Virus record (IMG/VR): IMGVR_UViG_3300028830_000309
Length of the DNA stretch: 64,000 bases
Direction: 5' to 3' (one strand)
Source: a virus
In this document: positions 1 to 55,358 of the stretch, piece after piece
Numbering within the stretch: position 1 is the first letter of the stretch
Layout: each line of letters begins with the position of its first letter
Program-made: the position numbers and the translations under genes
The notes under the pieces: generated by a model
Told to the model about the DNA's origin: nothing
Databases searched by the model: none
Seen by the model: the letters and a program-made list of their open reading frames with translations, nothing else

Positions 1-5
1 GCCTC

Positions 6-2963
6 TTGAGCCTGTTGCAGTGGCACGAGCGTCTTGAGCGCCATTTCCTCGCCCTGAGCGAGTCGCGACGCGGAAGCGTCTCCGCCGGCGTTGTCTTCGC
101 ACTTGAGCACGGCCTGGAAGCGGAGGAAATAAAGGCGCTCTCAAAGGCAGTTCGTGCCGATGTCGTTGGCGCACTTCCCTCCCGCGGCAACACGCTCCCG
201 TGGATTGTGTACGCCGCCGAACTTGGATACCGCTACTCGGGCGACGAGTACTGGCATACGTTCGAGGCGGAGACGCCTGGTTGGACCGTCAATGGCGACC
301 GGGATTGGATACGAAAGGGCTTCAAGTCCTTCCAGAAGAAGTTCCACGGCGCCAAGCCCACAGGTCCGTGGGCCGCTCACTTCTCCATCATCTGCTGGCC
401 GATCACGCACGCCATTCTCCCCTGCGACCTCCAGAGGCAGCTCGCCCGGCTTCTGTATGACCTCCGGCACTCGTTCCACGCGGAGCTTCTCGAGTCTCCA
501 GAGAAGCTCGGAGAATTCATAGCGTCGCAGAGTTGGAGCACCACATCTCGGTTCCAGCAGCTCGCCGAGAAGCCCCTCCTGCTGGGGCAGATCGCCACAG
601 CTCTCCTCCTCCAAGGCGAGGTCGGGACAGACACTCTCATCCATCCCGAGACCCTTCGGAGGATACGCAGCGACCTGGAGAAGGAACGGCTGTCTCGCGA
701 GTGGCTCCGCGGCGCACGCCAGCAAGCGAAGGAACGCGTTCAGATTCGCGGCCTCGGCTCTGGGCGCACAAGTTCCTCAACCCCATCGGCCCCTCACCGT
801 CGCCCTGAAGAGGCCCGAGAAGAGCTCGCCGCGCTCGGGATCGAGCCCCGCCTGGTCCTACGGCCAACAAGCACGGATGCTGCAAACTGGGATGTCCTGC
901 TCGAGATCCCCGATCTCTCGCAACTCCTCCTCAGGTTCCCTAGTACTCGCGAGACCCTCACCCGCTCACGGTGCACCGTTGCCGGCGCTGCTGGAAACGC
1001 CCTCGCGCGCGGCCGTGTTCTTTACGGGCCGCAAAGAGTCACCCTCGCGCGGTGGCCCAAGTCGGATCAACTCCTCCTGAGTTTCGATCCCTCGGATCCT
1101 CAACTCGAGTTTCTTCTTCGCACGGAGTGTCTTCTCCGGCCAGGCCCAAAATGGTTGTTCCGAATAGCTTCGGACGGCTTGGCCTACGAGGTACGAAGCC
1201 AACGGGTCCGGCCTGGCGAGCGCTATATCCTCGTCACCACTGTCGGCGCTCTCACATCTCTTCGGGGCGTCTGGCCTATCACCCTAGCCTGTGAAGGGGC
1301 GACAGGCGTCATTTTCACTCTCCCTGAGGCCCTCGGTTCCGACTGGGAGAACACCCTTCGGCACTATGGCCTCAGCCAGGCTAGAGCTATAGAGGTGTGG
1401 CCGGCGGGGCTTGCCCCACTCGCCTGGGATGGAGAGGGGTACGGCGAATGGCTCGCCTCAGAGAGGCCGTGCCTCGCCATTCGTGCCGACCACGCCATAG
1501 ATGCGCTCGTCGTCTCCCTGGGGAACCCTCCGGGGGACTCTATTGAGATCGCTCCGATGACCGAGGGGCAGACAGCCTTCGTCGAGCTTCCGCCACTCCC
1601 CGTCGGACTTCATACCGTCCGTCTTCGCACCCGCGGAGGGAAGCTCGCGGAAGACTCCGTCCTCGGCGCGCTCAATGTCTTCATGCGTATCCGGCAGGCT
1701 CGGACGTCCGGTACCGGGGCTAATCGGCCCCTCGTCGTACAACTCGAGCCGCCGGTACCGACGCTCGAACAGCTGTGGGACGGCAACGCCGAGATCACCG
1801 TCTTCGGACCGACAGCCTACGAGCTCACGTGTCGCGCCTCCCTCTTCAGCGCCAATGATGGAACGACCGCAGTAAAGAAGACGCTTCCGCCCATCCCGCT
1901 CCCGATTACTCCTCACGCCTGGCGCGACCACTTCGAGAAGCACTTTCGTAGACTGAAGGACGTCCAGGAGGCGTATGACGACGCCGGCGCCTGCGAACTG
2001 GTCCTCACAGCGGACGAACTCGGGGCCGCCACAGCTCGGTTTGAGCGCACCCTCAGACCCGTTCGCTGGGCCCTGCGCAAACGCCACCATGCATACGCCT
2101 TACACCTTCTGGATGACACGGGGAGCGGAGCTCAACCAGAGGTCAAGCGTTTCGCTTTTGAGACCCCCAGCAACAAGGTGCCTCTTCCCGTCTTGCCCGA
2201 GTACGACGTGGAGCCCCTCGGTGGTCTATACGTCGCGAGGGCCGGTAGCTATGCCGCGACGATCGTCGTCCCTCCAACGATACGCGGGAAGGGCTTCGCC
2301 GACTTGCGATGCGCGCCAGTAGTCGCGAAGCTAGAACGAAACGAAGACTCCTTTGTCAGCCTGGTGGAACTCTGCGGCCTATGGGGCCGCGCACGCCTAC
2401 CAGGTGACCCTCTCGCGGGGATCCGCCAAAGCGAAGTCATGCGCGCTCTAACGCACGCGCTCTTCAGTCTCATCGGTGGCGAGAAATGGGCTGCCGCCGA
2501 GGAGTACGCCGTACGCGATGCCCCAAACGGCTTCATGTCCCTGAAGCACGCGGTGACCTTCAAGGCCGAGGCAGTTCTCCTGGCGGAACACCTGGCTACC
2601 GAGTGTGCCGCCCTGGCGTCAGCTCCTCTCTCGGTTCGAGTCCAGCGGATTGCTGCGCTTGCGGAGAAGCATGCCTCTTACGCGACAGCTACCCTGTTGA
2701 AGACCCTTGCTCGCATGAGAGTCCTGAAACAAGAGGATGCCGACCGGATCGCGCATCTCACGTGGTTCTCGGAGTTCGCCCTTCGGCTCGCAAGCGACCC
2801 CGCTGGGGTCGAATCGTGGGCCGGAAAGCACCTACGCTTCGGCGCGAAGCACCTCCCTCCGACGCTCGCACGCGCAGCACGCTTCTTCGTGCTCTCCATC
2901 GACCGTCACCTTCAATCTCGGGTCTCGGAACATGCCCTCTACGCCGGCTGGGTATGGGAATGA
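6..2963 (+). CDS. Large hypothetical defence protein, probably Druantia type II DruF-like
   Basis: 985-aa ORF with TTG start; the frame is open to the window edge, so the start is uncertain. First of a 985/363/1851-aa trio ending in a DUF1998 helicase, the size and order pattern of druF-druG-druE. No catalytic motif recognised. Confidence 0.55.
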   Translation: MSLLQWHERLERHFLALSESRRGSVSAGVVFALEHGLEAEEIKALSKAVRADVVGALPSRGNTLPWIVYAAELGYRYSGDEYWHTFEAETPGWTVNGDRDWIRKGFKSFQKKFHGAKPTGPWAAHFSIICWPITHAILPCDLQRQLARLLYDLRHSFHAELLESPEKLGEFIASQSWSTTSRFQQLAEKPLLLGQIATALLLQGEVGTDTLIHPETLRRIRSDLEKERLSREWLRGARQQAKERVQIRGLGSGRTSSSTPSAPHRRPEEAREELAALGIEPRLVLRPTSTDAANWDVLLEIPDLSQLLLRFPSTRETLTRSRCTVAGAAGNALARGRVLYGPQRVTLARWPKSDQLLLSFDPSDPQLEFLLRTECLLRPGPKWLFRIASDGLAYEVRSQRVRPGERYILVTTVGALTSLRGVWPITLACEGATGVIFTLPEALGSDWENTLRHYGLSQARAIEVWPAGLAPLAWDGEGYGEWLASERPCLAIRADHAIDALVVSLGNPPGDSIEIAPMTEGQTAFVELPPLPVGLHTVRLRTRGGKLAEDSVLGALNVFMRIRQARTSGTGANRPLVVQLEPPVPTLEQLWDGNAEITVFGPTAYELTCRASLFSANDGTTAVKKTLPPIPLPITPHAWRDHFEKHFRRLKDVQEAYDDAGACELVLTADELGAATARFERTLRPVRWALRKRHHAYALHLLDDTGSGAQPEVKRFAFETPSNKVPLPVLPEYDVEPLGGLYVARAGSYAATIVVPPTIRGKGFADLRCAPVVAKLERNEDSFVSLVELCGLWGRARLPGDPLAGIRQSEVMRALTHALFSLIGGEKWAAAEEYAVRDAPNGFMSLKHAVTFKAEAVLLAEHLATECAALASAPLSVRVQRIAALAEKHASYATATLLKTLARMRVLKQEDADRIAHLTWFSEFALRLASDPAGVESWAGKHLRFGAKHLPPTLARAARFFVLSIDRHLQSRVSEHALYAGWVWE

Positions 2964-4051
2964 AACGACTCTTAGTGGCCGAGGTCCACGCGCGGAAGGT
3001 GGCGGAGTTAGGCCTCGATGCGACGGCCCTGGATCTGACCTCCCTCGAGGCCCTCGCCTGCATGCTCCGTCGCAGTGCCAGTCACCTCTGCCCGTGCTCG
3101 GCTGCGACCCTGATTCGCGACGTCATGCGTCCGCTGCGCGGCCTTGTGCCAGACGTCACAAAGGTCAGGGAACCACTTGAAGACACCCTCGAAGCACTGG
3201 TCGCTCACGGCGACCTACTCGAATATGCCGGAAGCGGCCAAGATGGCGCCAGGCCCTCCGGCCCGCAACTCTACGCTGCCCCTCCAAGTTTCCTGTCGCG
3301 TGATACCGGGGCGGTGATCTTGCTCGGTGTCGGCGCGGACCGCCCCTCAGGGCTACCCGACGATCTGGAGGCCAGGCTCGAGAACGTCTCGTACATTCGA
3401 CGGCTCACCCCGAACCCCGGAGAGTCCCTTCGAAGCGAGTTGCTTCAACTCGGCCTACTCGAGGTTCCTTCAACTGCCTGGCTGAAAACCCCGAAGCTCG
3501 AGAAGCCCGCCGACCATGTCGCACGGTTGAACGTCCTCCTTGACGCTGCGCCACCCTCGCGCGATGTCTCCGGTCTCCGTGTCTTGGACTCAGCGCTCCC
3601 GGTTCGCTACTACCCAGGACGGTGGGTTGCACCGAAGGCGAAGACAGGTCGCTTCGTCGGACGTAGGAGTCAGGCGTACGGCGCCGACCTCTGGTCCTAC
3701 GTCGAACTTCAGGACGGTCGCCCAGAGCGCCTCATCGACTTGCCGACTCCCATGAGCCGCTGGCGTGGTTGCGACGAGGCATGGCGCCTTCAACTCGCCA
3801 TCGACGCGCTGCGGGGCGAGCCACAGCGTTTCCGGTCTCTGGTGGAGGGTCGGATGACCTGCGTTCTTGAACTCTTCTCACCCCTGCCCGCTTGGGCCAG
3901 GCGCCGTTGGGATGCTGTCGGAGAACCCGTGCCACGCTCCGGATGCCTGTTCGCATACCGGTTTCCCATCAACGAGGTCGCCGAGGAACTGCGGTTCGCT
4001 CGCGACGTCCTTTGGATCACGGAGGCGGGCCCAGCCAAGGAGCCTGCGTGA
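2960..4051 (+). CDS. Hypothetical protein, probably DruG-like
   Basis: ATG at 2960 overlaps the upstream stop (ATGA), giving 363 aa (MKRLLVAE...). The longer track ORF from 2486 overlaps the upstream gene and is unlikely. Call rests on position between the DruF-like and DruE genes. Confidence 0.5.
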   Translation: MKRLLVAEVHARKVAELGLDATALDLTSLEALACMLRRSASHLCPCSAATLIRDVMRPLRGLVPDVTKVREPLEDTLEALVAHGDLLEYAGSGQDGARPSGPQLYAAPPSFLSRDTGAVILLGVGADRPSGLPDDLEARLENVSYIRRLTPNPGESLRSELLQLGLLEVPSTAWLKTPKLEKPADHVARLNVLLDAAPPSRDVSGLRVLDSALPVRYYPGRWVAPKAKTGRFVGRRSQAYGADLWSYVELQDGRPERLIDLPTPMSRWRGCDEAWRLQLAIDALRGEPQRFRSLVEGRMTCVLELFSPLPAWARRRWDAVGEPVPRSGCLFAYRFPINEVAEELRFARDVLWITEAGPAKEPA

Positions 4052-4064
4052 AGAGGTCTAGAAC

Positions 4065-7000
4065 ATGGCCCTAACGATCGGCGAGACGATTCAGGAACTG
4101 CAGCGGGCGTTGAGGGATTACGTGGAGGCGACGTACCACGTCAGCCACCCATTGCTCGTAGCACAGCGACGGGCGCTCCTTGAGCAGCCGGGCGTCATCC
4201 ACCAGCGCCCGTACCTCGAGAGCACGCCTCGATACCAGACCGGCATCCGCTTCAGGGACCTGCACCTCGATTCCGCCGCCGAGGCTGTCTTCTCAGCGGT
4301 CTCGAAGCCCGCAGGAGAACTCGGCATCCTCATTCACGACCCTCCCTACCAGCACCAGGCGAGCGCTACGAAGCTTTCGCTCGTCGACGGTAGGAGCTTA
4401 ATCGTCATGACTGGGACGGGCTCGGGCAAGACGGAGTGCTTCCTCCTGCCGATCCTCGGAAAGCTCGCCCGAGAGGCGAAGGCGAAGGGCCCGGCCTTCG
4501 CGTCCACGCACGCCGTTCGAGCCATGGTTCTCTATCCGATGAACGCTCTGGTCAACGACCAACTCGGACGACTCCGGTTGCTCTTCGGCGACCCGCGCAT
4601 CGTCAAGCAATTCACCCAGTGGTGTGGACGCCCCGCCCGATTCGCTCGGTATACGAGCCGTACCCTCTATCCCGGGGTTCGCAGTGACGAGAAGGACAAG
4701 GACAAGCTCGCCCCGATCGGGAAGTACTACGTGCAGAACCTTGAGACTGCTACCGGACCATCATCGCCGCGGCAGCTTGCGGCCCAACGTCTCGTCGGCG
4801 AACTCAAGAAGCGCGGCAAATGGCCGGCGAAGCCGGACCTCATCGGTTGGTACGGGAAGAAGGGCATGCGTTGGAAGGACGCCAAGACTGGCGTGTTCAA
4901 GAGGTGCGTCACCCTCCCCCACGATCCCGAGCTTCTCACGAGGCACGAGGTCCACGCTGCCCCACCTGACGTCCTCGTCACGAACTACTCAATGCTCGAG
5001 TACATGCTCATGCGCCCCCTCGAGCGCCCGATCTTCGACCACACCCGAGACTGGCTCCAGGCGAACCCTGACGAGCGCTTCCTGCTCGTCATCGATGAGG
5101 CACACCTCTACCGAGGAGCAGCAGGAGCGGAGGTCGCCCTGCTCATTCGCCGGCTGCGTACCAGGCTGGGGATTGGGCCCGAGCGCCTTCAGGTGATATG
5201 CACGAGTGCGAGTTTCAAAGACCCGCAGTACGCCGTCGAGTTCGGGTCGCAGCTCTCCGGAAAGGACCCGAGCCATTTCTCCTCGGTGCAGGGTGATCTT
5301 CTCTTCCGGTCTGGGCCGGCCAGTGGCACGAGGGCGGACGCAGAAGCCCTCGACGCTATCGACCTTCAGAGTTTCTACGAAGCTGCCACCGATGCGGAAC
5401 GCGTCGGACACGTAGCGTCATTCCTCAAGCACCGTGCCGTTGCACCTCCCTGGCAGCTCCAGCCAGCACTCTACACGGCGCTCGAGTCATTCGGCCCGAT
5501 GGCGCGCCTTATCAACGTCACCATGAAGGAAGCGCAGCCCGTCGAGGCTCTCGGTGAAGCTCTCTTCGAAGGCGTCCCCCGTGGTCTCGCAGACCGTGCC
5601 GTGACGAACTTGATCGCCCTTGGGAGTGTCGCGCGACGCGAGCCAACGGAACCTGGTCTTCTTCCGTGCCGCATCCACTCCTTCTACAGGGGTCTTGCTG
5701 GACTTTGGGTCTGCATGGACCAGCAATGCCCTTCCCTCCCGCCGGAGCAGCGCGGAGGCCCCGCGGGTCGTCTCTTCAGTCAGCCACGCGACGCCTGCGA
5801 CTGTGGCGCTCGAGTGCTCGAGCTGTTCACCTGTCGGAACTGCGGCACCGCCTACGGAAGGGCCTACACGAATAACGTCCAGGATCCTAGCTTCCTGTGG
5901 GGGGAGCCAGGCGGAGCGTTCCGTACCCTCGCGGGACAGGTTGACGAACTCGAACCGATCGATCTCCTCCTCGAGCACCCGGTGATATCGACCGAGATTG
6001 AGCCGGCCGAGTACGACCTCGTTACCGGTAGGCTTAATCCGCCTCAGTGTGGCCCGCGCAATCGGCAGCTATTCCTCCGGGGAGGTAGGGCGGCAGCCCA
6101 CCCAGGCGAGGACGAGCCACGGAATACGAGGCCGGGCGAGTTCCGCCCTTGCGCCGTCTGCGGAGAGAAGGCCGCATACGGTAGATCCTCCGTTCAGGAT
6201 CACCAGACGAAGGGCGACCAGCCGTTCCAGGCGTTGATTGCGAAGCAGATCCAGGTACAGCCTCCAAGCCCCGTCGCAGCCACGAGGCTCGCTCCGCTGA
6301 GGGGACGCAAGGTCCTTATCTTCTCCGACTCCCGCCAGACCGCTGCACGGCTCGCACCGAACCTCCAGAAGTATTCGACACAGGACACCCTGCGCCCGCT
6401 CATCGTCTTCGGGTACGGGCGCCTCAGCCAGGCGCCGCCCATGGCGGGCCTTTTATCGCTGGACGACCTCTACCTGGCGGTCCTCATCGCCGCGAAGGAG
6501 CTTGGCGTCCGCCTCCGTCCTGAGTTGAAGGCCGGGGAGAGCTTCGACGATGAGAACGTCGTCGCTGAGGCGGTGAAGAACGGGGCCCTGTCGAGCCCTC
6601 CTGGGCTCCTGTCTCTCTGGGGGCGAATGCGCGCTTCTCGACCCCCCGAGTCGCTTCTCGGAGCGATCGCGAAGGCCGTCACAGACGGGTACTACGGCTT
6701 AGAGTCGCTCGCGATCGCTTCGCTCGTGGAACGCTCGGAGCGGACGCCGAAAATCCACGCCCTACCGGACATTCCAGGTCTAGCAGTCGCCCCCGACCAG
6801 AAGCTGGCCCTCGCTCGAGCATGGATCCGCTGCTGGGGGCGCGCAGGCCTGTGGCTCACCCACATGCCCCCCGCATTGTGGAACACGAAGCGTGAGTTCC
6901 AGCCACGTTCCGGCAAGTTCACGGAGATGAATTCACTACTGAAAGGGAAGCAGGTACGATCCACCTTCGAGAAAGAGTGGCTCCCGCAACTCCTGGCTGA

Positions 7001-9620
7001 CTTCACAGAGCAGTTGTTTCCCGGCAAGCACCGGATGAAAGGCGGGGAACTAGCGCTCTCGATCGGGGGGTCGTGGGCGTACTGCCAGTCCTGTCGGACC
7101 ACGCAGCGCGTGTTCCCGGGTCGGACCACGTGTATCACCTGCGGCGCAGACACCGCGACGCCGATCGACCCTGACACCGATCCCGTCTTCTCGGCGCGCA
7201 AAAGCTACTACCGCGCTAGTACCGTCGATGCTCTCCGCACTCCTCCTGTCCCTCCGATGGCTCTGATCGCCGCCGAGCACACCGCGCAGCTCAACACTGC
7301 GCAGGCGGAAGACGTTTTCTCTAAGGCGGAGGAACACGAACTGCTCTTCCAGGACGTCGACCTCGGCCCGGACGAGACCGGACGTGAGCGCTCGGCGATC
7401 GACGTCCTCTCCTGCACGACGACGATGGAGGTCGGTATCGACATCGGTACCCTCTCCGGCGTCTCGCTCCGGAACATGCCGCCCGCGCGCTCGAACTACC
7501 AGCAGCGTTCCGGACGGGCAGGACGCCGGGGAAATGCTGTTGCAACGGTGACCGCCTTCGGAAGTGCCGACAGCCACGACGAGCATTACTTCACGCACCC
7601 CGATCTCATGATCCGGGGAGCAGTCGATGATCCGACCCTGACGCTGGACAACTACGACATCGCACGGCGGCACGTCACGGCCTACCTGCTCCAGCGCTAC
7701 CACCAAGCGAGACTTCCCTCGATCAGACCCGAAGCCCAGCCCCACCTGTTCGCCGTTCTCGGACGCGTCGTGGAGTTCAAGGACTCGAAGTCACTCCTGA
7801 GCCGGTCCGACTTCGGGCAGTGGCTCCTCTCGAACCAGACCGCCCTTAAAGCCGACGTGGCCGCCTGGCTCCCCTCCGAACTCTCGGCCGCACGGCGGCA
7901 GCGCCTTCTCGACGGTCTCGTCGACGAGACGCTTCGCCCGATCGACGACGCGATCGAATACGACCCAAATGCCGCGGCCGTGAAGAGCGCCCAGGCACCA
8001 GCGGCACCGGCAGATTCTGATGCAGCAGCTGACGAGAAGATCGAGACCACTGATGAGGTCGGCGAGGAGGCTCCCGGACGGGATGCGGCCTCCGAGAACC
8101 TTCTGGACCGACTACTGTACAAGGGTGTGCTTCCAAGGTACGCGTTTCCAACCGACGTTGCAGCGTTCCACGTATTTGATGCTGATCGCTCGACGTTCTA
8201 CCGCCCCGTCTTCCGATTCACACCTTCGCAGGGACTCCCAGTCGCGCTCTCGCAGTATGCGCCCGGGAAGGAGGTCTGGATCGCGAACAAGCTCTGGACC
8301 TCCAATGCGCTCTATTCTCCGATGCGCAACGATCGCTACAAGGCGTGGGAGATCCGGAGGCTGTATTACGAGTGCAGTTACTGCCATTACGCCAACACGG
8401 TGAAACTCACGGATGGAACGAGAGGAGAGTCGAAGGACTGCGAGGCGTGCGGGGGCACGGGCACGTTCGGGCCAGCGACATACTGGTTGCGGCCGCCGGG
8501 GTTCGCTCATCCTGTTAGCAAGGAGGAGGGAACATCTCCAGATGATCAACCCGCGAAGAGCTACGCGACTCGAGCGAAGCTGACAGCTCCAACACCCGCC
8601 GACGCCTCACTGTGGACGCAGGTCAACGAGCATATTCGCGTCCACTACACCAGGCAGCACCTCCTCGTGACGAACAGAGGACCGCGAGACGAGGGGTACA
8701 CCTACTGCACGAAGTGCGGCCTCATCGAGCCTACCGCGCTCCCGAAGGGGGTCGTCGGCGCCTCGCACAGAAAGCCCTACGTCGACGTCCGTGACCCGAA
8801 CTGCCAGGGAGGCGGGGCAACGAAAGGTCTCGTACTGGGCACTGACTTTATTACCGACGTTCTCCTCGTCTCGATGAGCGTGCAACCACCACTCACCCTG
8901 CTACCCAGTCTTCTCGCCACAGACGTCGCACTCCGGACCATGAGTGAGGCGCTGACGAAGGCCGCGTGTGCCCGCCTCGAGTTGGAGGCGAACGAGCTGC
9001 AAGCCGAATACCGGTCAGCGCTCACCCCCGCCGGGCGAGACGGACTCGAAGCTGAAATCTACTTCTACGACACGCTTCCGGGCGGAGCGGGATTCGCGCA
9101 GCGCGTCGGCGACCTCGGCCTGGTCGTGTTCGAAGATGCGCTACGTGTCCTCGAGTCGTGCCCCGAAGACTGCGACCGCTCGTGCTATCGCTGCCTCCGC
9201 AGCTACAAGAACAAATTCGAGCATGACCTACTCGATCGTCACGTTGGCGCCAGCCTCCTTCGGTTCTTGCTCACGGGCGCTCCACCGACTCTTGGCGCTC
9301 GGCGTCTCGCGCAGTCGACGAACCTTCTCTTTAACGACCTCGAGCGACAGGGCGTTACAGGCCTGCGCCTCGAACGAAACACGTCTCTGGCCGTGCCAGG
9401 TATGGCTCCCGTCACCGCGCCAATCCTCGCCACGAACAGTCGGGGGGAGCAGTCAATCATCGATCTGCACGGACCACTGACGCCGGACGATCCGTCGGAC
9501 GCCACGCTCCGAGACGTCCGGGATCGCTCCGCCGCACCGAAGGTCGTCATCGTCGACGAGATGGTCGTGCGCCGGAACCTCCCGACCGCGACCGCCGACC
9601 TCCTTACCAGGATCGGCTGA
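4065..9620 (+). CDS. druE: DEAH-box SF2 helicase with C-terminal DUF1998 Zn module (Druantia DruE-like)
   Basis: 1851 aa. Walker A TGTGSGKTECF, YPMNALVNDQ, Walker B IDEAH, TTTMEVGIDIG, motif VI QRSGRAGRR, several CxxC pairs, and C-terminal CPEDCDRSCYRCL. Confidence 0.8.
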   Translation: MALTIGETIQELQRALRDYVEATYHVSHPLLVAQRRALLEQPGVIHQRPYLESTPRYQTGIRFRDLHLDSAAEAVFSAVSKPAGELGILIHDPPYQHQASATKLSLVDGRSLIVMTGTGSGKTECFLLPILGKLAREAKAKGPAFASTHAVRAMVLYPMNALVNDQLGRLRLLFGDPRIVKQFTQWCGRPARFARYTSRTLYPGVRSDEKDKDKLAPIGKYYVQNLETATGPSSPRQLAAQRLVGELKKRGKWPAKPDLIGWYGKKGMRWKDAKTGVFKRCVTLPHDPELLTRHEVHAAPPDVLVTNYSMLEYMLMRPLERPIFDHTRDWLQANPDERFLLVIDEAHLYRGAAGAEVALLIRRLRTRLGIGPERLQVICTSASFKDPQYAVEFGSQLSGKDPSHFSSVQGDLLFRSGPASGTRADAEALDAIDLQSFYEAATDAERVGHVASFLKHRAVAPPWQLQPALYTALESFGPMARLINVTMKEAQPVEALGEALFEGVPRGLADRAVTNLIALGSVARREPTEPGLLPCRIHSFYRGLAGLWVCMDQQCPSLPPEQRGGPAGRLFSQPRDACDCGARVLELFTCRNCGTAYGRAYTNNVQDPSFLWGEPGGAFRTLAGQVDELEPIDLLLEHPVISTEIEPAEYDLVTGRLNPPQCGPRNRQLFLRGGRAAAHPGEDEPRNTRPGEFRPCAVCGEKAAYGRSSVQDHQTKGDQPFQALIAKQIQVQPPSPVAATRLAPLRGRKVLIFSDSRQTAARLAPNLQKYSTQDTLRPLIVFGYGRLSQAPPMAGLLSLDDLYLAVLIAAKELGVRLRPELKAGESFDDENVVAEAVKNGALSSPPGLLSLWGRMRASRPPESLLGAIAKAVTDGYYGLESLAIASLVERSERTPKIHALPDIPGLAVAPDQKLALARAWIRCWGRAGLWLTHMPPALWNTKREFQPRSGKFTEMNSLLKGKQVRSTFEKEWLPQLLADFTEQLFPGKHRMKGGELALSIGGSWAYCQSCRTTQRVFPGRTTCITCGADTATPIDPDTDPVFSARKSYYRASTVDALRTPPVPPMALIAAEHTAQLNTAQAEDVFSKAEEHELLFQDVDLGPDETGRERSAIDVLSCTTTMEVGIDIGTLSGVSLRNMPPARSNYQQRSGRAGRRGNAVATVTAFGSADSHDEHYFTHPDLMIRGAVDDPTLTLDNYDIARRHVTAYLLQRYHQARLPSIRPEAQPHLFAVLGRVVEFKDSKSLLSRSDFGQWLLSNQTALKADVAAWLPSELSAARRQRLLDGLVDETLRPIDDAIEYDPNAAAVKSAQAPAAPADSDAAADEKIETTDEVGEEAPGRDAASENLLDRLLYKGVLPRYAFPTDVAAFHVFDADRSTFYRPVFRFTPSQGLPVALSQYAPGKEVWIANKLWTSNALYSPMRNDRYKAWEIRRLYYECSYCHYANTVKLTDGTRGESKDCEACGGTGTFGPATYWLRPPGFAHPVSKEEGTSPDDQPAKSYATRAKLTAPTPADASLWTQVNEHIRVHYTRQHLLVTNRGPRDEGYTYCTKCGLIEPTALPKGVVGASHRKPYVDVRDPNCQGGGATKGLVLGTDFITDVLLVSMSVQPPLTLLPSLLATDVALRTMSEALTKAACARLELEANELQAEYRSALTPAGRDGLEAEIYFYDTLPGGAGFAQRVGDLGLVVFEDALRVLESCPEDCDRSCYRCLRSYKNKFEHDLLDRHVGASLLRFLLTGAPPTLGARRLAQSTNLLFNDLERQGVTGLRLERNTSLAVPGMAPVTAPILATNSRGEQSIIDLHGPLTPDDPSDATLRDVRDRSAAPKVVIVDEMVVRRNLPTATADLLTRIG

Positions 9621-9638
9621 GCGAAGGAGGGCGCGGAT

Positions 9639-10865
9639 ATGACGTCTCCAGAGTCGGCGTCCCCCTGGACGACAGACATCCCCGCTGCGTGGCCCAGTGC
9701 CCCGGCGGACATGACAGTAACGACCTTGGTAGACATGGAGGGGTGCCCCCGTCGGTGGGCAATGAGTGCAGCTGAGTACCCAGCGCTCTGGCAGGGTCGC
9801 GGATATCCGCCTCCCCTCAACTCTCAGGCACTCGCGGGCACCGTCGTTCACATGGCCCTCGAGACCGTATCTCGGGCGCTTGTTCAGGCTGGGTGCCAGT
9901 CAGTGCAGGATCCGTGCGCCCCGCAGGTAATGGGAACACTCGGTGGCTACACGAAGGTGGTCTCCGACTGCATCGAACTCGTGCTCAGCCGTCTTGCCAC
10001 CAATCCCAGGGCCGCACCCCTCCTGGAGGGCGCGGGCAGGGCGCTACGGACTCGCGTGCCCGACTTTCGGATGCGCCTCCAGACGATTCTCTGCCGCACG
10101 AGACTCCCCAATCGGGCTACCTCTTCAGGGCCCACGTACGAGGCGAGGACCCGCAGGCCGCTTCCTTTCGGGTCCTTCTCTGAGATCGAGTTCCGCGCTC
10201 CCGCACTGGGGTGGAAGGGCAAGGCGGATCTCCTTCTTCTCACGGAAGCCGCCTGCGAAATCATCGACTTCAAGACGGGAGCGCACGACGAGAAGCATCG
10301 GTTTCAACTCGAGGTCTATGCGCTCCTCTGGAGCCGGGACAGAGACCTCAACCCTACTGGTCGACTCGCCAACCGGCTCGTGCTGCGATACGAAGCGGGC
10401 GACCTCGAAGTGCCCGCTCCGACCGCTACGTACCTCGACGAGTTGGAACGCACGGTTGTCGCTCGACGCGCTGCGGCACATCTCGCCGTATCCTCACGCC
10501 CTCCCGAGGCACGCCCCCACCCTGATACCTGTCGGTACTGCGGCGTGCGGCAACTCTGCGACCGGTACTGGGTGCCGAAGACACTTGAGGATGTCGCAGG
10601 GAGTTCCGCGAATCGCGATTTCGGAGACTTGGAGGTGCTCGTCAGTGGGAGGCACGGCCCATCGAGCTGGGACGCCGTCTTCACGTTAGGCGCTGGGTTC
10701 CATCCCGGAAAGCATGCTCTCGTTCGTACCAGGGGAAATCATGTCTTTCGGTCGGGATATCGCCTCCGGATCCTGAACGCATCTATCGCCATGGACATCG
10801 ATGACGACGCCAGTCCCGTCGCAGTAACACTCTCCTCACAGAGCGAGGTGTTCGTCGTCGGGTAG
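9639..10865 (+). CDS. RecB/AddB/Cas4-like PD-(D/E)XK nuclease with probable 4Fe-4S staple
   Basis: SD GAAGGAGGG upstream. Motifs CPRRW, GTVVH, GKADLL, IIDFKTG, QLEVYA and C-terminal CRYCGVRQLC. Confidence 0.85.
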   Translation: MTSPESASPWTTDIPAAWPSAPADMTVTTLVDMEGCPRRWAMSAAEYPALWQGRGYPPPLNSQALAGTVVHMALETVSRALVQAGCQSVQDPCAPQVMGTLGGYTKVVSDCIELVLSRLATNPRAAPLLEGAGRALRTRVPDFRMRLQTILCRTRLPNRATSSGPTYEARTRRPLPFGSFSEIEFRAPALGWKGKADLLLLTEAACEIIDFKTGAHDEKHRFQLEVYALLWSRDRDLNPTGRLANRLVLRYEAGDLEVPAPTATYLDELERTVVARRAAAHLAVSSRPPEARPHPDTCRYCGVRQLCDRYWVPKTLEDVAGSSANRDFGDLEVLVSGRHGPSSWDAVFTLGAGFHPGKHALVRTRGNHVFRSGYRLRILNASIAMDIDDDASPVAVTLSSQSEVFVVG

Positions 10866-11244
10866 ACCTGGCTACCGAGTGCATCGAGACGCTGAACGGG
10901 CTCCCGTTGACTTTTTGCGCCAGACGCTGCATGCTGTCAGACGCCGCGACGCCACATTCGCGGCAACCGAATCCACGGGGCTCCAAGAGCGGGCCTCAAA
11001 AGCGAGGAGGATAGCGTGGCCAAACATTCTGTTGAGTATTTGCCCTGCGTAGGACGCTTCAGCGTCCAGTGCGGGGTGTTTGCGTTTTCGCGCCCTCCAC
11101 CAGCCCGATCCCCCCACGGGCTCGTCCACATCCCGACGTCGACTTTCACCCGTCAGCCGCCCCCGAAGGCGGAGACCCACGCCAACCGAACGGACCCTGT
11201 ACGGGAGTGCCAATAGCGCGCTCCCCAATAGAAGGCAACAAAAC

Positions 11245-13008
11245 ATGAACGCTAAGACATACAAGAGTGACCTCGATAAGCAGACCGAATACGCCGAGAA
11301 GACGGACGCCGACAAGCTGGTGCTGATCGCCCCGAAGTCCTTTGTCCAGGGCATGCGCGATAGCGGCTACAAGTCGACCGCGACCGCGCTGGACGAGTTC
11401 ATCGACAACGCGATCCAGGCCGAAGCCACGCGCGTCGACATCCTCATCGGCTACACGGCGAAGAACACGACGATGAAGAAGCTGGACCGCGAGGCCGGTG
11501 GACTCGTCGCCATCGTCGACGACGGCCACGGCATGACGCAGAAGATGATCCGCGCTGCCGTCCGCTGGGGCGGTACCCACCGCTGGAACGAGCGGGACGG
11601 CATGGGTCGCTTCGGCTTCGGCCTCCCGAGCGCGGCCGTCAGCATCTCCCCGAGCTACGAGGTCTACTCGAAGGTCGCTGGCGGCGAATGGTGGATGGTC
11701 CGCGTCGACCTGGAGTCGATCGGATCCGACGACGCGAGCCACGGCCAGGTGTTCGTCCCCGAGGCGGTGAGCGTGCCGCCCCCCGCCTGGATCCGCGAGG
11801 CGGTCGGGGATCTATCCCACGGAACCGTGATCCTGCTGGATCAGCCGGACCGGCTGACCTCGGGCTTCGTGAACGTCGGAACCTTCAAGGAGAAGATCCT
11901 CCACCACGTCGGCCTCATCTACCGGAACTTCTTCCGCGAGGTGACGATGCGGCTCATCGACACGGGCCGGAAGAACGTCATCACCGAGGTCGAACCGATC
12001 GACCCACTCTTCCTGACGCCCGGCGCGCGCGGATACAACGAGCTCCCGGTGCCGGCCATTGGGCTGCCCGAGGCCACGTTCACGGTGAAGACCAAGGACG
12101 GGCTCTCGACGGGGAGCGTCCGCATTCGCTACGCGCACTTCTCGAAGGAGTTCATGGGCGGCAGGGATACGGCCCGGATGAAGGTCCGCATCGAGAACAT
12201 GGGATTCATCATGGTTCGGAACGGGCGGCAGATCGAAGCCGTCAGGCAGAACCCCTGGTCGGTCCTCATGAACAACGACAAGTTTTGGGGCTGCGAGATC
12301 AACTTCGACGCCGCCCTGGATGAGGACTTCGGCGTCACGACCAACAAGCAGCAGATCAACCCGACGGATCGGATGTGGGACATCCTCGGCAAGAACGGCC
12401 TGGAGAACCAGATCCCCGCGCTGCGGAAGCACTACAAGGACCAGCACGCGAAGGACGCGGCCAGGAAGGACGCCGAGGCGCCGAAACCGTCGGAGCAGAT
12501 CGCCAAGAAGACCGAGAAGTTCCGGAAGAAGCGGACGGTGAAACCCACCCCGGAGAAGCAGCGCGAGAGCGAAGTCCGGATGAAGGAGGAGATCACCAAG
12601 GTCCAGCATGAGACCGGCAAGCCGGCCGACGAGATCGCCGCCGCCATCGAGAACTCGCCCTACAAGGTCGACTTCGAGAACCTGCCGGGCGCTCCGTTCT
12701 TCCGCCTGCTCCTTTTCGGGTCGCAGAAGCGGGTCCTCATCAACTCGGCACACAGGTTCTACACCGACCTCTACTCGGCTCCGGAGACCGACCAGCGCAC
12801 GAAGACCGCCCTCGAGCTCCTGCTCTTCGTCCTGGGGGAGTGCGAACTCGAGACGACGCCGGACAAGGAGCGCTTCTACGTGGGTGAGCGCAACGAGTGG
12901 TCGCTGCGCCTGAACATTATGCTCGAGGAGCTCGACCACTCGGACCCCGTGGACGACATCCGCGAAGAGCTGGAGGCGGAGGTCACGCCGTCCCAGCCGG
13001 CCATGTAG
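11245..13008 (+). CDS. MORC-type GHKL (HATPase_c) ATPase, copy 1
   Basis: Start moved to ATG 11245 (MNAKTY). N-box ALDEFIDNAIQA, G1 IVDDGHGM, G2 GRFGFGLPSA, S5-like domain RNGRQI...DFGVTTNKQ, and a charged coiled-coil. Confidence 0.85.
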   Translation: MNAKTYKSDLDKQTEYAEKTDADKLVLIAPKSFVQGMRDSGYKSTATALDEFIDNAIQAEATRVDILIGYTAKNTTMKKLDREAGGLVAIVDDGHGMTQKMIRAAVRWGGTHRWNERDGMGRFGFGLPSAAVSISPSYEVYSKVAGGEWWMVRVDLESIGSDDASHGQVFVPEAVSVPPPAWIREAVGDLSHGTVILLDQPDRLTSGFVNVGTFKEKILHHVGLIYRNFFREVTMRLIDTGRKNVITEVEPIDPLFLTPGARGYNELPVPAIGLPEATFTVKTKDGLSTGSVRIRYAHFSKEFMGGRDTARMKVRIENMGFIMVRNGRQIEAVRQNPWSVLMNNDKFWGCEINFDAALDEDFGVTTNKQQINPTDRMWDILGKNGLENQIPALRKHYKDQHAKDAARKDAEAPKPSEQIAKKTEKFRKKRTVKPTPEKQRESEVRMKEEITKVQHETGKPADEIAAAIENSPYKVDFENLPGAPFFRLLLFGSQKRVLINSAHRFYTDLYSAPETDQRTKTALELLLFVLGECELETTPDKERFYVGERNEWSLRLNIMLEELDHSDPVDDIREELEAEVTPSQPAM

Positions 13009-13029
13009 GATCCACCATCGAGTCAACTC

Positions 13030-13061
13030 GGGGGGCGGCTCACACCGCCCCCTCTTTTTTT
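13030..13061 (+). terminator. Intrinsic terminator between the two GHKL ATPase genes
   Basis: GGGGGCGG-CTCACA-CCGCCCCC followed by TCTTTTTTT. Confidence 0.8.
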
Positions 13062-13075
13062 ATACGGGAGGGTAT

Positions 13076-14509
13076 CTGGGACGGAGTCGCGAGTCAGAGC
13101 TTGTCCTGGTAGCCCCGTTCCTGGAGGCGTTCCGCGACGCCGGCTATAAGGGGCTGCCCGGCGCGCTCGCGGAGCTGATCGACAACGCCCTGGACGCCGC
13201 CGCGACGCAGGTCGAGGTCACGATCGAGGACGACGGGTCGACCGTCCAGCGCGTGACCGTTCTCGACAACGGCACCGGCATGCCGCCGGATGTCCTGCAA
13301 CTCGCCCTCCAGTTCGGCGGCACCACCCGCGATCGCGACCAGGGGTCGCTCGGTCGCTACGGTATCGGCCTCCCCGGGTCCTCCATGAGCCAGGCCCGAC
13401 GCCTGGACGTCTACACCTGGACGTCGCCCGGGCCATCCTTCCACGCCGCGCTCTCGCTCGACGACGTGCGCGCTGGGAAGCAGCGCGGCATCCCCGTCCC
13501 GAAGCGCGTCCCGTCGCCGGTCACGATCCCCGACTGGGCCCCCACGGGGACGCTCGTCGTCTGGACGTCGTGCGACCGCGTCATCCGCCCCTGGGGCCAG
13601 GGAATCTCCAGGCTCCGCCGCGTCCTCGGACGGACCTTCCGCGAGTCGATCTGGGCTGGCGCTACCATCCGTCTCAACGGCCACGCTCTGGCCGCTGTCG
13701 ACCCCCTCCACCTCCACGAGGAGGACGCAGCCCCGTACGGCCCGCCCCTCACGTTCGACCTCCGCATCGGACGCCGACCATCCCGCGTTACCGTCCGCTT
13801 CTCGGAACTCCCCATCGAGGACTGGCATGGCTACACCCCCGTCGAGAAGCGGCGCCTCGGCGTGACGAAGGGGGCCGGGGTCTCGGTCCTCCGATCGCAG
13901 CGGGAGATCGACGCCGGCTGGTTCTTCATGGGGACGAAGCGCCGGGAGAATTACGACGACTGGTGGCGCTGTGAGGTCGCCTTCCTCCCCGACTTGGACG
14001 AGCTGTTCGGCGTCACCCACACGAAGCAGGGGATCCACCCGACGGAATCGCTGGACGCCGTTCTGACCCCCGACGTGGAGCGGATCGCCCACGCGCTCAA
14101 CCGACGCGTCCGAGACCGCTTCGCGAAGCTGAAGAAGCGGGACGAGGGCCACGCCGTCCGCCGCGCCGAAGCCCACGACCACCTCCTGGAACCCCCTGCA
14201 GGGGGAGGGGATACGAAGCGCTCCACGGGGCCGCTCCGTGGTCTACGCTACCGCGTCGTGCGCGCGCCCATCTCCGACGAACGCTTCTACTCGATCTCTC
14301 GCTCGGGCGACGAGCTGACCCTCACGTTCAACGCCTCGCACCCCTTCGCCGCGGCGCTCGACGGCTCGATCTCGCCCCAGTCTCTCGTGGAACTCCTCCT
14401 CCTCGCGTCGGCCCGCGCCGAGCTCGCCCTGACGACCCGCGGCTCGCAGCGCGCCCTCTCAACCTTCCGAACGGCCTGGAGCAACGCCCTGGCGGCATTC
14501 CTGGGATGA
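13076..14509 (+). CDS. MORC-type GHKL ATPase, copy 2 (start probably non-canonical)
   Basis: The N-box ALAELIDNALDA lies upstream of the track start (13253) in the same open frame. G1 VLDNGTGM, G2 GRYGIGLPGS, RSQREID...ELFGVTHTKQ. Proposed CTG start at 13076 after GGAGG. Confidence 0.8.
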   Translation: MGRSRESELVLVAPFLEAFRDAGYKGLPGALAELIDNALDAAATQVEVTIEDDGSTVQRVTVLDNGTGMPPDVLQLALQFGGTTRDRDQGSLGRYGIGLPGSSMSQARRLDVYTWTSPGPSFHAALSLDDVRAGKQRGIPVPKRVPSPVTIPDWAPTGTLVVWTSCDRVIRPWGQGISRLRRVLGRTFRESIWAGATIRLNGHALAAVDPLHLHEEDAAPYGPPLTFDLRIGRRPSRVTVRFSELPIEDWHGYTPVEKRRLGVTKGAGVSVLRSQREIDAGWFFMGTKRRENYDDWWRCEVAFLPDLDELFGVTHTKQGIHPTESLDAVLTPDVERIAHALNRRVRDRFAKLKKRDEGHAVRRAEAHDHLLEPPAGGGDTKRSTGPLRGLRYRVVRAPISDERFYSISRSGDELTLTFNASHPFAAALDGSISPQSLVELLLLASARAELALTTRGSQRALSTFRTAWSNALAAFLG

Positions 14510-16470
14510 CCTCGGCGCTCGTCCCCTTCACGCCCGCGGTCGGTGACGCCGCCAGCGACCTCTGCGCCTTCGCCTCGCGGATCGCCGCGGGGGACCTCAC
14601 CGGCGCCCGCCGGGACCTCTACGCCCGCTCCTCCGGCACGGCCACGACGCCCGTCCTCCGCCTGCTCGTCGCCCAGAGCCTCCTCGCGGACCTAGCCGAG
14701 CAGGGCTGGGGGATCGAGAGCACCTGCCCGACGATCGCGCTCGTCGCCCCGACCGGGAACGGCAACGCCGCCGACGCCAAGGAGCGGATCCGAAACGCCC
14801 ACTTGGTGGAGCGGAACACTCACCTCCGGCAGCGCCCGGTCCACGAGTTCGTCGCCAGCCTGGAGCAGCGCCGCCTCACCGGTACGGGCTGGCACAGCGT
14901 CTACTCGCTGATGCGCGACGGCAGCAAGCTCGCGGCCTCCCTGCAGGCGGCCGCCCAGTCCACAGATCCTGATCCGCTCCGCGCCGCGATCGACCCGTAT
15001 GTCGTGGCCGTCACGCCGGACGGCATCTGCCCGCACACCGGCCTCTCGCTCGCCGACGTCTGGCGCTACTTCCGCCTGACCTGGGTCAACGCGCCGAAGT
15101 CCGTCCCGGGCCGCTCCATGCCGATCCTGATCCGCGACCGCGCCGCGCCGAACCACCCGGTGATCGGGATCGCGTCGCTCGGCTCGTCCGTCGTCCAGCA
15201 GGGCCTCCGCGACACGTGGATCGGCTGGGACTCAACGACGGTCATCGCCCAGATCGTCGACCGCCCGACCACGACGTGGGCCCGGTGGATCCTCGCGCGT
15301 CTCGACGCCCTCCTGGCCGGGATCGCGACCGCGGACCTCGTCTCGGACGGCACGATCACCCGGCGGGAGATCCGCACGCCGACCGCCGATACCGTCGAGC
15401 GCCTCCGGGCCGCCGGCGTCGAAGCCCGCCGCCTCCACGAGCTCTACCCTGACGCCACGGGCCACAAGCGTGGGCACGAGGACTGGAAGGCCGCCTCACG
15501 CACCCCCCTCTTCACGGCGAAGCGCTGCGAGACCCTGGCGCGGCTCCTCGGCATCCGCCTGGCCGTCGTCGGCGCCGGGCTCACGACCGGCACCCGCGCC
15601 GAGTTGCAGTCCGCCCTCGCGTCCAGCGCGTTCCGCTTCGCGGTCGGCCAGCTCGCCCGGCTCACGAAGGCCGAGCACGTCGGCATCGACATGATGGACA
15701 TCACCGTGTGCGGCGCGATCGCCCCGTACGGGCACCTGCTGGGTGGGAAGCTGGTCTGCGCCCTCCTCACGAGTCCAGAGGTGGTGATCGAGTACCGCCG
15801 CCGCTACGGGGACCAGGAGAGCATCATCGCGTCGTCCGTGGCCGGCACGGCCGTCCGGCGCGCGCCGAACCTCGTCCTCCTCGGGACGACGAGCCTCTAC
15901 GGCTCCGGGTCCAGCCAGTACAACCGGATCAGGATCCCGCTCGCTGAACTCGGCGCGAAGGGCGACGGAGATCTCCGCTACGAGGAACTGGGACTCTCGA
16001 AGGGCTACGGCTCCTTCCACGTCAGCGGCACGACCGTCCGGCTGATCAGTACGCTCCTCTCACGCCGGAAGGGCGGGCGCAAGGTGAACAGCATCTTCGG
16101 CGAGGGCGTGAACCCGCTCATGCGGAAGATCCGCGAGGCGCTGGAACTCCTCGATCTCCCGAGCGACACGCTCCTGCTCCACGGGGCCCAGCGCGTCGTC
16201 TACGGCGTCCCACTCGCCCGGAACTTCCGCGACGTCCTCCTGGGAATCTCCGAGCGCCCGTCGTACTTCCTGCCGCTCGCCCAGGCCGAGCGCGCCACGG
16301 ACGCCCTTGCCGCGTGGTGGCGCCGCCGGTGGCTCGCCGGCCGGATCACGCGCCCGGGCATCCTCGACGCCGTCGCCTCGCACACGCTGTCGTACCCCGT
16401 CCGCCATGGCGCGCGCGTCCCCGACGTCCGGGACGAGGAGCAGGAGACACTCTTCGACGACGAGACCTAA
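14506..16470 (+). CDS. druA: DUF4338 / Druantia DruA-like protein
   Basis: 654 aa, ATGA-coupled to ATPase 2. Motifs DITVCGAIAPYGHLLGGKLV, LGTTSLYGSGSSQYNRI and GxSxGYGSFH match my recollection of DruA/DUF4338. Confidence 0.75.
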   Translation: MTSALVPFTPAVGDAASDLCAFASRIAAGDLTGARRDLYARSSGTATTPVLRLLVAQSLLADLAEQGWGIESTCPTIALVAPTGNGNAADAKERIRNAHLVERNTHLRQRPVHEFVASLEQRRLTGTGWHSVYSLMRDGSKLAASLQAAAQSTDPDPLRAAIDPYVVAVTPDGICPHTGLSLADVWRYFRLTWVNAPKSVPGRSMPILIRDRAAPNHPVIGIASLGSSVVQQGLRDTWIGWDSTTVIAQIVDRPTTTWARWILARLDALLAGIATADLVSDGTITRREIRTPTADTVERLRAAGVEARRLHELYPDATGHKRGHEDWKAASRTPLFTAKRCETLARLLGIRLAVVGAGLTTGTRAELQSALASSAFRFAVGQLARLTKAEHVGIDMMDITVCGAIAPYGHLLGGKLVCALLTSPEVVIEYRRRYGDQESIIASSVAGTAVRRAPNLVLLGTTSLYGSGSSQYNRIRIPLAELGAKGDGDLRYEELGLSKGYGSFHVSGTTVRLISTLLSRRKGGRKVNSIFGEGVNPLMRKIREALELLDLPSDTLLLHGAQRVVYGVPLARNFRDVLLGISERPSYFLPLAQAERATDALAAWWRRRWLAGRITRPGILDAVASHTLSYPVRHGARVPDVRDEEQETLFDDET

Positions 16471-16483
16471 GGAGGGACGCGCT

Positions 16484-18390: not shown

Positions 18391-18756
18391 ATGACCACCA
18401 CCCTCGGCCAGACCATCCGGAAGCACCGCGAAGCCCTCGGCCTCTCGCTCCGCGTCTTCGGCCAGAAGGCCGGCGTCCACGCGCCCTACATGAGCAACAT
18501 CGAGCGCGGCACGAAGACCCCGCACGATGCCCTGCTCCTCCGCATCGCTGCAGCCCTCGGTGTGAAGGGAGATGAGCTGCTTCACCTCAGCCCCTACGTG
18601 CCCGTCCCAGCCCTCCGCGCGCGCTGCAAGGAGGATCCAGAGCTGGCCTACGCAATACGCGTCATCCTGCGCTGGAAGATCAGCGGGGAGGACCTTCTGG
18701 CCCTCCCCAAGATCCACGGTCACCTGACGCGAAAGGTCACCGCGGCAGGATCCTAG
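18391..18756 (+). CDS. XRE-family helix-turn-helix regulator
   Basis: LGQTIRKHREALGLSLRVFGQKAGVHAPYMSNIERG. Confidence 0.85.
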   Translation: MTTTLGQTIRKHREALGLSLRVFGQKAGVHAPYMSNIERGTKTPHDALLLRIAAALGVKGDELLHLSPYVPVPALRARCKEDPELAYAIRVILRWKISGEDLLALPKIHGHLTRKVTAAGS

Positions 18757-20961: not shown

Positions 20962-21120
20962 GTTCGCTCCTTCGGACGCCCGGCGCGGGAGCCACACGCT
21001 CCGCTACACGGTGGAGCACCAGCAGGGATCCGATGCTCGTTCGTGCCGGGGTTCCCCGGAGTGTAGCGCCTCGACGGTCTCGCGCGTCTCCCTGAAGCTG
21101 AGGGCGAACCCCATGTCCTG

Positions 21121-55341: not shown

Positions 55342-55358
55342 GGTGGTGAGGTAGGTAG

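Follow-up and report, generated by a model that had tools for sequence, protein, structure and literature searches.

The stretch of virus DNA analysed here (IMG/VR record IMGVR_UViG_3300028830_000309; 64,000 nucleotides (nt), hereafter the window) carries on its + strand, at positions 6-17680, what is probably a single anti-phage locus of the Druantia type I lineage, a widespread variant that is absent from the catalogues searched and travels here as cargo in a tailed-phage genome. The locus is a rearranged copy of this variant of type I Druantia, in which one protein, the product of open reading frame 1 (ORF1, or 'DruX'), occupies the place of DruB and DruC, a Cas4-like nuclease predicted to dock on the helicase DruE is present, and DruA is accompanied by MORC-like ATPases. 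Type I Druantia is among the broadest-acting defence systems tested in E. coli, and to our knowledge its mechanism is not known; in the scheme that Doron et al. are said to have set out in 2018, type I is DruABCDE, type II is DruMFGE and type III is DruHE.

Positions 1-17680 hold eight closely spaced genes on the + strand, with every reading frame intact (Table 1), and these genes fall into two modules. ORF1, druD, druE and the nuclease gene form a tightly coupled operon (module 1, the core), in which the second of two candidate druD starts, ATG 2960, overlaps the ORF1 stop as ATGA and the nuclease gene starts 18 nt past the druE stop with the Shine-Dalgarno sequence GAAGGAGG ahead of it. ATPase A, ATPase B and a long-form DruA make up module 2 (the cassette), which lies downstream of the core here rather than upstream and has an Mrr-like gene appended; the ATPase B stop overlaps the druA start, also as ATGA, and druA is found 4.9 kb past druE on the same strand and not at the operon head, a downstream placement common to three other loci (L022, L063 and L111). 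An earlier account made from the letters alone, the sequence-only reading, had given the positions and strand of these genes, the Shine-Dalgarno-led nuclease 18 nt after druE and the distance to DruA, and it was borne out in every positional detail. The gap of 380 nt between the nuclease gene and ATPase A contains a Shine-Dalgarno-led GTG ORF (11016-11215, about 66 amino acids (aa), proline-rich), which may be spurious or a leader.

Type assignment and the ORF1 family

Protein families were assigned by profile scans with PADLOC, Pfam and NCBIfam. The product of ORF2 is DruD1 (PADLOC PDLC00010, 1e-111, profile positions 1-354 of 359), and the helicase matches DruE1 (PDLC00013) end to end at 1941 bits, as opposed to 613-640 bits in pieces for DruE2. 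With its Pfam domains DEAD, Helicase_C and MZB (DUF1998; PF09369, 49.5 bits), DruE is a type I-class, YprA/MrfA-like helicase of superfamily 2 (SF2) with an MZB domain. The 654-aa protein matches PADLOC DruA1 (PDLC00001, 1e-162) and Pfam DruA (PF14236, 106.8 bits, 1.5e-30). None of the eight locus proteins matched the PADLOC models for DruM, DruF, DruG or DruL, and the 6 kb upstream of the window, read from an identical metagenome contig (L001), hold no methylase, DruM, DruA or DruB, only small phage-like genes (RNase_T exonuclease, Metallophos, YunG). Since DruD1, DruE1 and DruA1 are all matched, DruF, DruG and DruM are not, and no methylase lies upstream, we assign the locus to the type I lineage throughout and do not regard it as a hybrid. 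The sequence-only reading had seen in it a type II-like half, consisting of a trio of the sizes of DruF, DruG and DruE for which a DruM methylase might be sought upstream, joined to a type I-like half. The sizes do fit (985, 365 and 1851 aa) and the families do not: the FGE label fails because ORF1 and ORF2 match neither DruF nor DruG in the Druantia profile scans, and the helicase is of the DruE1 class.

ORF1 and its halves have no match in PADLOC, even at E<=10, and none in Pfam or NCBIfam, and neither PADLOC nor NCBIfam contains a model of its family. Full-length homologues, 930-1020 aa in size, number more than 1100, and a profile search over 1.84 billion representatives returned 1376 clusters at 50% identity (E<=1e-10); only full-length family members stood among the best 150 matches listed, where split or distant DruB/DruC-like relatives would be undetectable. 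In the complete related loci an ORF1-like gene always directly precedes DruD-DruE, and the order DruA, ORF1-like, DruD, DruE occurs on Desulfobacteraceae and Hyd24-12 contigs, in an ENA assembly and on the Nitrosococcus plasmid pNWAT01, whose ORF1 homologue is annotated by NCBI as a hypothetical protein.

As canonical type I reference we used the Pseudomonas putida plasmid pKF715A, checked with the PADLOC models, and its DruA, DruB (762 bits), DruC (902 bits), DruD and DruE1 each match their own model. Compared by hhalign with pKF715A DruB and with pKF715A DruC, the ORF1 family obtained a probability of 0.2% in each case. The DruB1 and DruC1 models found no match in five genomes carrying the variant, and no canonical DruB turned up in 401 genomes that belong to a single class. 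ORF1 occupies the position of DruB and DruC of canonical type I and, by its sequence, looks unrelated to both. A locus on the Sinorhizobium medicae plasmid pMl4 (L087, NZ_CP140892.1) was also tried as canonical reference and rejected, being a relative disrupted by an insertion sequence with an upstream protein that matches neither DruB nor DruC; its DruE is split by an IS3 element, the upstream protein is a different one of 764 aa, and an AAA ATPase follows the DUF1998 fragment.

The AlphaFold2 (AF2) model of ORF1 (predicted local distance difference test score, pLDDT, 90.7; predicted template modelling score, pTM, 0.86) begins with a helical N-domain (1-246) and ends with another helical domain (780-970), and between them lies a run of beta-sandwiches (about 280-760). 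Fold searches with the whole model (Foldseek and VIA-align) gave only generic Ig/FN3/macroglobulin beta-sandwich matches, over residues ~460-760, and no enzyme fold, the helical N- and C-domains being barely covered by the whole-model search. On this model the protein looks scaffold-like, and it may serve as a scaffold or adaptor.

The nuclease and its predicted docking on DruE

The protein encoded after druE matches PF12705 (PDDEXK_1) at 66.3 bits (cut-off 22) and PADLOC DruK at 5e-14, with the Cas4 models weaker; against Cas4 TIGR00372 it reaches 31.1 bits, below the equivalog cut-off of 65. Across 51 orthologues the invariant residues are C36, H71, D197, D/E210, K212, Q223, Y227, C298, C301 and C307, which form the RecB/Cas4/AddB pattern with PD-(D/E)xK, QhxxY and a putative four-cysteine iron-sulfur staple of the form C...CxxCx5C. 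We take the protein to be a distant DruK-like nuclease, predicted to be active. The name DruK led to unrelated papers only in the literature, and the supplements of the PADLOC paper do not contain it.

In 53/76 loci whose downstream sequence reaches far enough, the nuclease follows DruE. When DruE 1270-1851 and nuclease 20-408 were predicted as a complex (a 44-row alignment each, median of three runs), the score was 0.71, versus 0.00 for the best of three controls; this mark is reached by 58 of 80 solved complexes and by 2 of 110 mismatched pairs, counts that are approximate here as custom alignments were used. At least 91% of the contacts are common to the runs, the pLDDT of the partners is at least 82, and the predicted interface on DruE comprises residues 1451-1471, 1777-1780 and 1819-1829. 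When loci with and without the nuclease were compared, without phylogenetic correction, conservation was higher in the nuclease-bearing loci for DruE R1453 (0.96 versus 0.45), G1779 (1.00 versus 0.64) and E/D1820 (0.90 versus 0.45), and also for D1458. The predicted complex supports binding of the nuclease to the C-terminal region of DruE. That the helicase might work with a dedicated AddAB-like nuclease had been proposed from the letters alone, and the linkage and the predicted docking now speak for it. According to a prediction by Bell et al. 2025 (PMC12458937), type I DruE has at its C-terminus a Vsr-type nuclease domain that is inactivated, and such an inactive tail fits the need for a separate active nuclease.

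DruA, its ATPases and their tie to the core

Related cores were collected by scanning species-representative genomes with the C-terminus of DruE, which matched 331 stretches; 80 loci from many phyla were kept, with DruE 57-80% identical across the 80 genomes, and tblastn with the window proteins over these loci identified 62 complete cores. A short DruA of about 395 aa lies directly upstream of 31 of the 62, and a long DruA lies upstream on the same strand of another 16 and upstream but divergent, on the opposite strand, of one. Downstream positions are taken by a long DruA on the opposite strand (5/62) and by a short DruA (1/62). Four cores have a divergent ATPase B with DruA just beyond the end of the locus, as confirmed in the three checked (3/3), and the last four have no DruA in reach, one of which (L051) proved to have the cassette of ATPase A, ATPase B and DruA immediately beyond its boundary. 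In total, DruA adjoins the core in 55/62 and lies a little past the end of the locus in four more, leaving at most 3/62 cores without an adjacent DruA. The same-strand downstream order of the window recurs in L022 and L063, of whose cores the retrieved stretch contains only a part, and the metagenome locus L111 has the exact order DruE, nuclease, ATPase A, ATPase B, DruA. No second DruA for the window's own core turned up, either elsewhere in the window or across the 6 kb upstream. These counts indicate that the core almost never occurs without a neighbouring DruA and that the position of DruA is flexible, and they uphold the suggestion of the sequence-only reading that DruA belongs with the core: the pairing of the two halves recurs in several orientations, and cores lacking DruA are rare.

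On the DruE tree, loci with short and long DruA interleave, and well-supported branches force at least 8 switches, so the DruA module must have been exchanged often. The window's nearest neighbours on this tree, L008 and L022, also stand in its strongly supported clade on the DruA tree.

Both ATPases match HATPase_c_3 (59.8 bits for A and 42.9 for B, cut-off 25) and contain N-boxes (FIDNAIQA in A, ELIDNALDA in B), and their best match in the defence library is MzaB, at 55 and 44 bits versus an equivalog cut-off of 850. ATPase A and ATPase B are 28% identical and look like old paralogues. In a Lentisphaeraceae cassette beside the same core (L051/L108) the counterparts are 44% (ATPase A), 44% (ATPase B) and 54% (DruA) identical, the match to the L108 ATPase B beginning at residue 9. 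The same L108 has, at 544-1179, a 211-aa gene before ATPase A with weak MzaA-like and PDC-M03A matches, to which nothing corresponds at that place in the window. ATPase B is directly upstream of long DruA in 5/5 genomes in which long DruA comes first in the operon. Metagenomes were also scanned with long DruA, and the 80 loci kept showed ATPase B adjoining long DruA in 57/62 loci with enough upstream sequence, and an ATPase A-like gene (at least 38% identity) before ATPase B in 11/48, concentrated among the closest relatives of the window's DruA. Enough flank on both sides was available for 28 metagenome loci, and the ORF1/DruE core is present in 17 of these and absent from 11. Six loci (L112, L115, L137, L161, L171 and L188) carry the ATPase B-long DruA pair beside distant DruE-like helicases (33-36% identity). 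This distribution suggests that the ATPase B-long DruA module serves several helicase cassettes, and because of the core-less loci and of the pairs beside distant helicases we regard the cassette as a semi-autonomous module.

The AF2 model of DruA (pLDDT 81.7) has a GNAT fold: all of the top 50 structural matches found with VIA-align are GNAT-fold proteins (50/50, Z 7.5-9.5), and the first of them is the Mom protein of phage Mu (Z 9.5, root-mean-square deviation 4.1, 176 residues aligned), with ordinary GNATs within 1 Z unit. Foldseek returned no significant match for DruA, and a sequence-profile search of the PDB gave chance matches only and no sequence match to Mom. DUF4338 has been named a GNAT domain (PMC10853773). 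The Mrr-like protein matches PF04471 (Mrr_cat) at 25.9-26.4 bits (cut-off 21); its gene has no tblastn match in 160 related loci and is, for this reason, probably an add-on.

The two modules differ in G+C content at third codon positions (GC3), which is 0.71-0.76 in ORF1, DruD, DruE and the nuclease, 0.92 in ATPase A, 0.89 in ATPase B, 0.945 in DruA and 0.84 in the Mrr-like gene. The sequence-only reading had rightly noted more A/T-ending codons in its FGE block than in the first ATPase and DruA genes (0.71-0.76 versus 0.89-0.95). Since the phage structural genes (0.87-0.97) match the cassette, the core is the compositional outlier, and the difference points to different recent histories of core and cassette in this phage. 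Neither module is bounded by direct or inverted repeats that would mark an insertion. The compositional gap, from which separate acquisitions had been proposed earlier, is real and unusual, and the DruA and DruE trees nevertheless share the window's nearest neighbours. Other mosaics were seen in L017 and L007, where the GC3 of DruE is above that of the locus's own ORF1 (0.87 versus 0.67 and 0.74 versus 0.56); by composition, these hint at recombination inside the core operon.

We consider it likely that the two modules form one cooperating system, and several observations weigh against this. The nuclease is missing after DruE in 23/76 loci, and a search of five such genomes with the window's nuclease as query did not find it in any other place, because of which we treat it as a frequent accessory and no core part. 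In 11/28 loci the cassette stands without a core, so that it is probably able to act by itself or together with different partners. Upstream of the conserved N-terminus of ATPase B there is no ATG, GTG or TTG. The sharp GC3 gap between the modules is unlike the situation in more than 20 other loci, where GC3 matches, and a strong terminator and the 380-nt gap lie between the modules. Finally, we found no phage challenge of any member of the variant in the literature.

Some of these points could be explained if two independent defence systems, a helicase-nuclease core and a MORC ATPase A/B-DruA(-Mrr) cassette, sat side by side in a phage defence island. Such a reading also holds that the two were acquired separately and do not cooperate, that the cassette is helicase-free and self-sufficient and that the core does without DruA. 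It is possible and, in our judgement, unlikely: the GC3 gap of about 0.2 with a cassette that matches the phage structural genes, the terminator, and the long-DruA cassettes that stand without a core or beside other helicase types all speak for it, but few cores lack a DruA beside them, no further DruA is within reach of the window's core, the pairing recurs in several orientations with an identical order in L111, and both trees place the window with L008 and L022. We find it improbable that the DruA module is a decaying passenger and the system dead. ATPase B would in that case have lost its start codon, and gene callers begin it at GTG 13253; a product that starts there would be without the ATP-binding N-box. 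However, the frame is open and conserved from CTG 13076 (59 N-terminal codons), a GGGAGGG Shine-Dalgarno sequence stands 4 nt before this CTG, all eight frames and the catalytic residues of the nuclease are intact, and identical copies of the locus are present in two other samples; from the sequence, CTG 13076 is the likely start of ATPase B. A hybrid of a type II-like DruF/DruG/DruE trio with a type I DruA, for which the gene sizes and the presence of a DruE-class helicase speak and nothing more, is hardly credible given the profile matches and the upstream region without methylase described above, and given that the ORF1-DruD-DruE trio follows DruA in dozens of genomes.

Phage carrier, possible mechanism and known systems

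The window is a tailed-phage or prophage genome, as shown by the packaging, head, tail and lysis genes downstream of the locus (Table 1), and the Druantia locus is a cargo of about 17.7 kb between the early genes and the packaging module. Related DruE genes occur on seven IMG/VR viral contigs. The phage collection contained no close relative of the carrier, the best terminase match being 26% identical. The terminator at 13030-13062 is the top-ranked site in the terminator scan.

Table 1. Genes and other features of the locus and of the phage genome around it
Feature	Position	Strand	Remarks
ORF1 ('DruX')	6-2963	+	985 aa, TTG start
druD (ORF2)	2954-4051, or 2960-4051	+	365 aa (ATG 2954) or 363 aa (ATG 2960)
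druE helicase	4065-9620	+	1851 aa
Cas4/AddB-like iron-sulfur PD-(D/E)xK nuclease, putative	9639-10865	+	408 aa
Weak terminator-like hairpin 3' of nuclease gene	10895-10917	+	pattern scan only
GHKL/MORC-type ATPase A	11245-13008	+	587 aa
Strong intrinsic terminator between ATPase A and ATPase B	13030-13062	+	9-bp stem, 8 G-C pairs, then T run
GHKL/MORC-type ATPase B	13076-14509 (gene callers: 13253-14509)	+	~477 aa from CTG 13076
Long-form druA	14506-16470	+	654 aa, DUF4338
Mrr_cat endonuclease-like protein	16484-17680	+	398 aa, 13 nt past druA
Xre-type helix-turn-helix protein	18391-18756		
728-aa gene	18811-20997	-	GC3 0.83 (native-like); no Pfam or PADLOC match; between defence locus and terminase, beside the Xre-type gene
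Terminase large subunit	21121-22743		
Portal	22797-24266		
Protease			downstream of the locus
Scaffold	26226-27011		
Major head protein	27068-27973		
Minor tail protein	34678-35874		
Tape measure	37069-40515		
Tail proteins	40525-43389		
Amidase endolysin	47232-47975		
GroEL-like chaperonin	53734-55479	-	
tRNA-Met	58717-58791		
Rad52-like protein (recombinase)	59646-60350	-	

Carriage by a tailed phage suggests use of the system in competition of phage against phage, and it raises the question of how the carrier's own DNA escapes. With 331 stretches matched and more than 1300 clusters in the ORF1 family, the variant is found far more widely than the five-gene form of the catalogues, and it offers handles on the mechanism: a nuclease predicted to be active that would dock on the inactive-nuclease tail of DruE, a GNAT-fold DruA with a fixed MORC partner, and a modular build with frequent swaps of the DruA module. 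Features new in the window are that a cassette with two ATPases is joined to the core and lies downstream of it, that an Mrr-like gene is appended, that a phage carries the locus and that its composition is split; the predicted interface of DruE and nuclease is new as well.

The analysis establishes the gene identities, their conserved linkage, the conserved catalytic residues, the predicted folds and the predicted interface of DruE and nuclease, and each biochemical step of the following model is our inference. By analogy with type III DruE, which binds single-stranded DNA (ssDNA) or 3' overhangs and unwinds 3'-to-5' (10.64898/2026.05.12.722862; 10.64898/2026.05.13.724758), the DruE of the variant could engage exposed ssDNA or 3' overhangs of invader DNA and unwind it in the 3'-to-5' direction. 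For type I DruE, Bell et al. 2025 predict an inactive Vsr-like domain at the C-terminus; the iron-sulfur nuclease, a separate protein, would for that reason dock on the C-terminal region of DruE and degrade the unwound strand as AddAB does. Building, gating or regulating this complex may fall to ORF1 and DruD, and the ATPase-DruA module would supply recognition, sensing or self-marking, with DNA or a protein as the substrate of the GNAT-fold DruA and with a DNA clamp or switch formed by the dimerising ATPases.

A more specific possibility could be considered for DruA, since an adenine 'm6A' (N6-methyladenine) signal dependent on Druantia I was reported in a system that has no methyltransferase (bioRxiv 10.1101/2024.04.14.589459), and the predicted DruA fold has Mom as first match among GNATs of nearly equal score. 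We hypothesise, as a testable long shot in which we place little confidence, that a Mom-like DruA and the MORC ATPase or ATPases put an N6-adenine adduct on the DNA of the carrier, phage and host, and that ORF1, DruD, DruE and the nuclease degrade unmarked DNA. If this were true, type I Druantia would be a restriction-modification-like system with a non-methyl epigenetic mark, and the Druantia I-dependent signal in the absence of a methyltransferase would be explained.

Compared with known systems, the variant shares with type III, the only Druantia type with mechanistic work (2026 preprints, 10.64898/2026.05.12.722862 and 10.64898/2026.05.13.724758), a homologous helicase, but type III includes DruH, its DruE bears PLD-like domains, and it is without DruA, DruD, ORF1, a separate nuclease and the ATPases. 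As in type II and in PADLOC type IV (DruE-DruF-DruL, PMC8565338), a DruE-family helicase is preceded by two genes of unknown function; unlike in these types, DruM, DruF, DruG and DruL are missing and the helicase is of the DruE1 class. The nuclease resembles AddAB, RecBCD and Cas4 in its RecB-family PD-(D/E)xK motifs, its QhxxY, its putative iron-sulfur staple and its predicted binding to a helicase, and differs from them in being a small stand-alone protein, with an additional domain of ~100 aa at its C-terminus, whose partner is an SF2 YprA-like helicase and not one of superfamily 1 (SF1). The ATPases share with MzaB of the MZA system the HATPase_c_3 Bergerat fold with an N-box, yet they are far below its equivalog cut-off (55 versus 850 bits) and have DruA as fixed partner instead of MzaA, MzaC, MzaD or MzaE. 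Mom of phage Mu, a GNAT-fold enzyme that modifies DNA at adenine N6, is the best structural match of the DruA model; unlike Mom, DruA has a large helical insertion and an N-terminal extension, the two have no sequence similarity, and ordinary GNATs are tied with Mom as matches. With type I the variant has in common the DruE1-class helicase, DruD, DruA (DUF4338/GNAT), co-directional overlapping genes and location on a mobile element. It departs from type I in having one 985-aa protein instead of DruB and DruC, a Cas4-like nuclease added after DruE, and a DruA of the long form that is accompanied by one or two MORC-like ATPases and, in the window, lies downstream rather than first.

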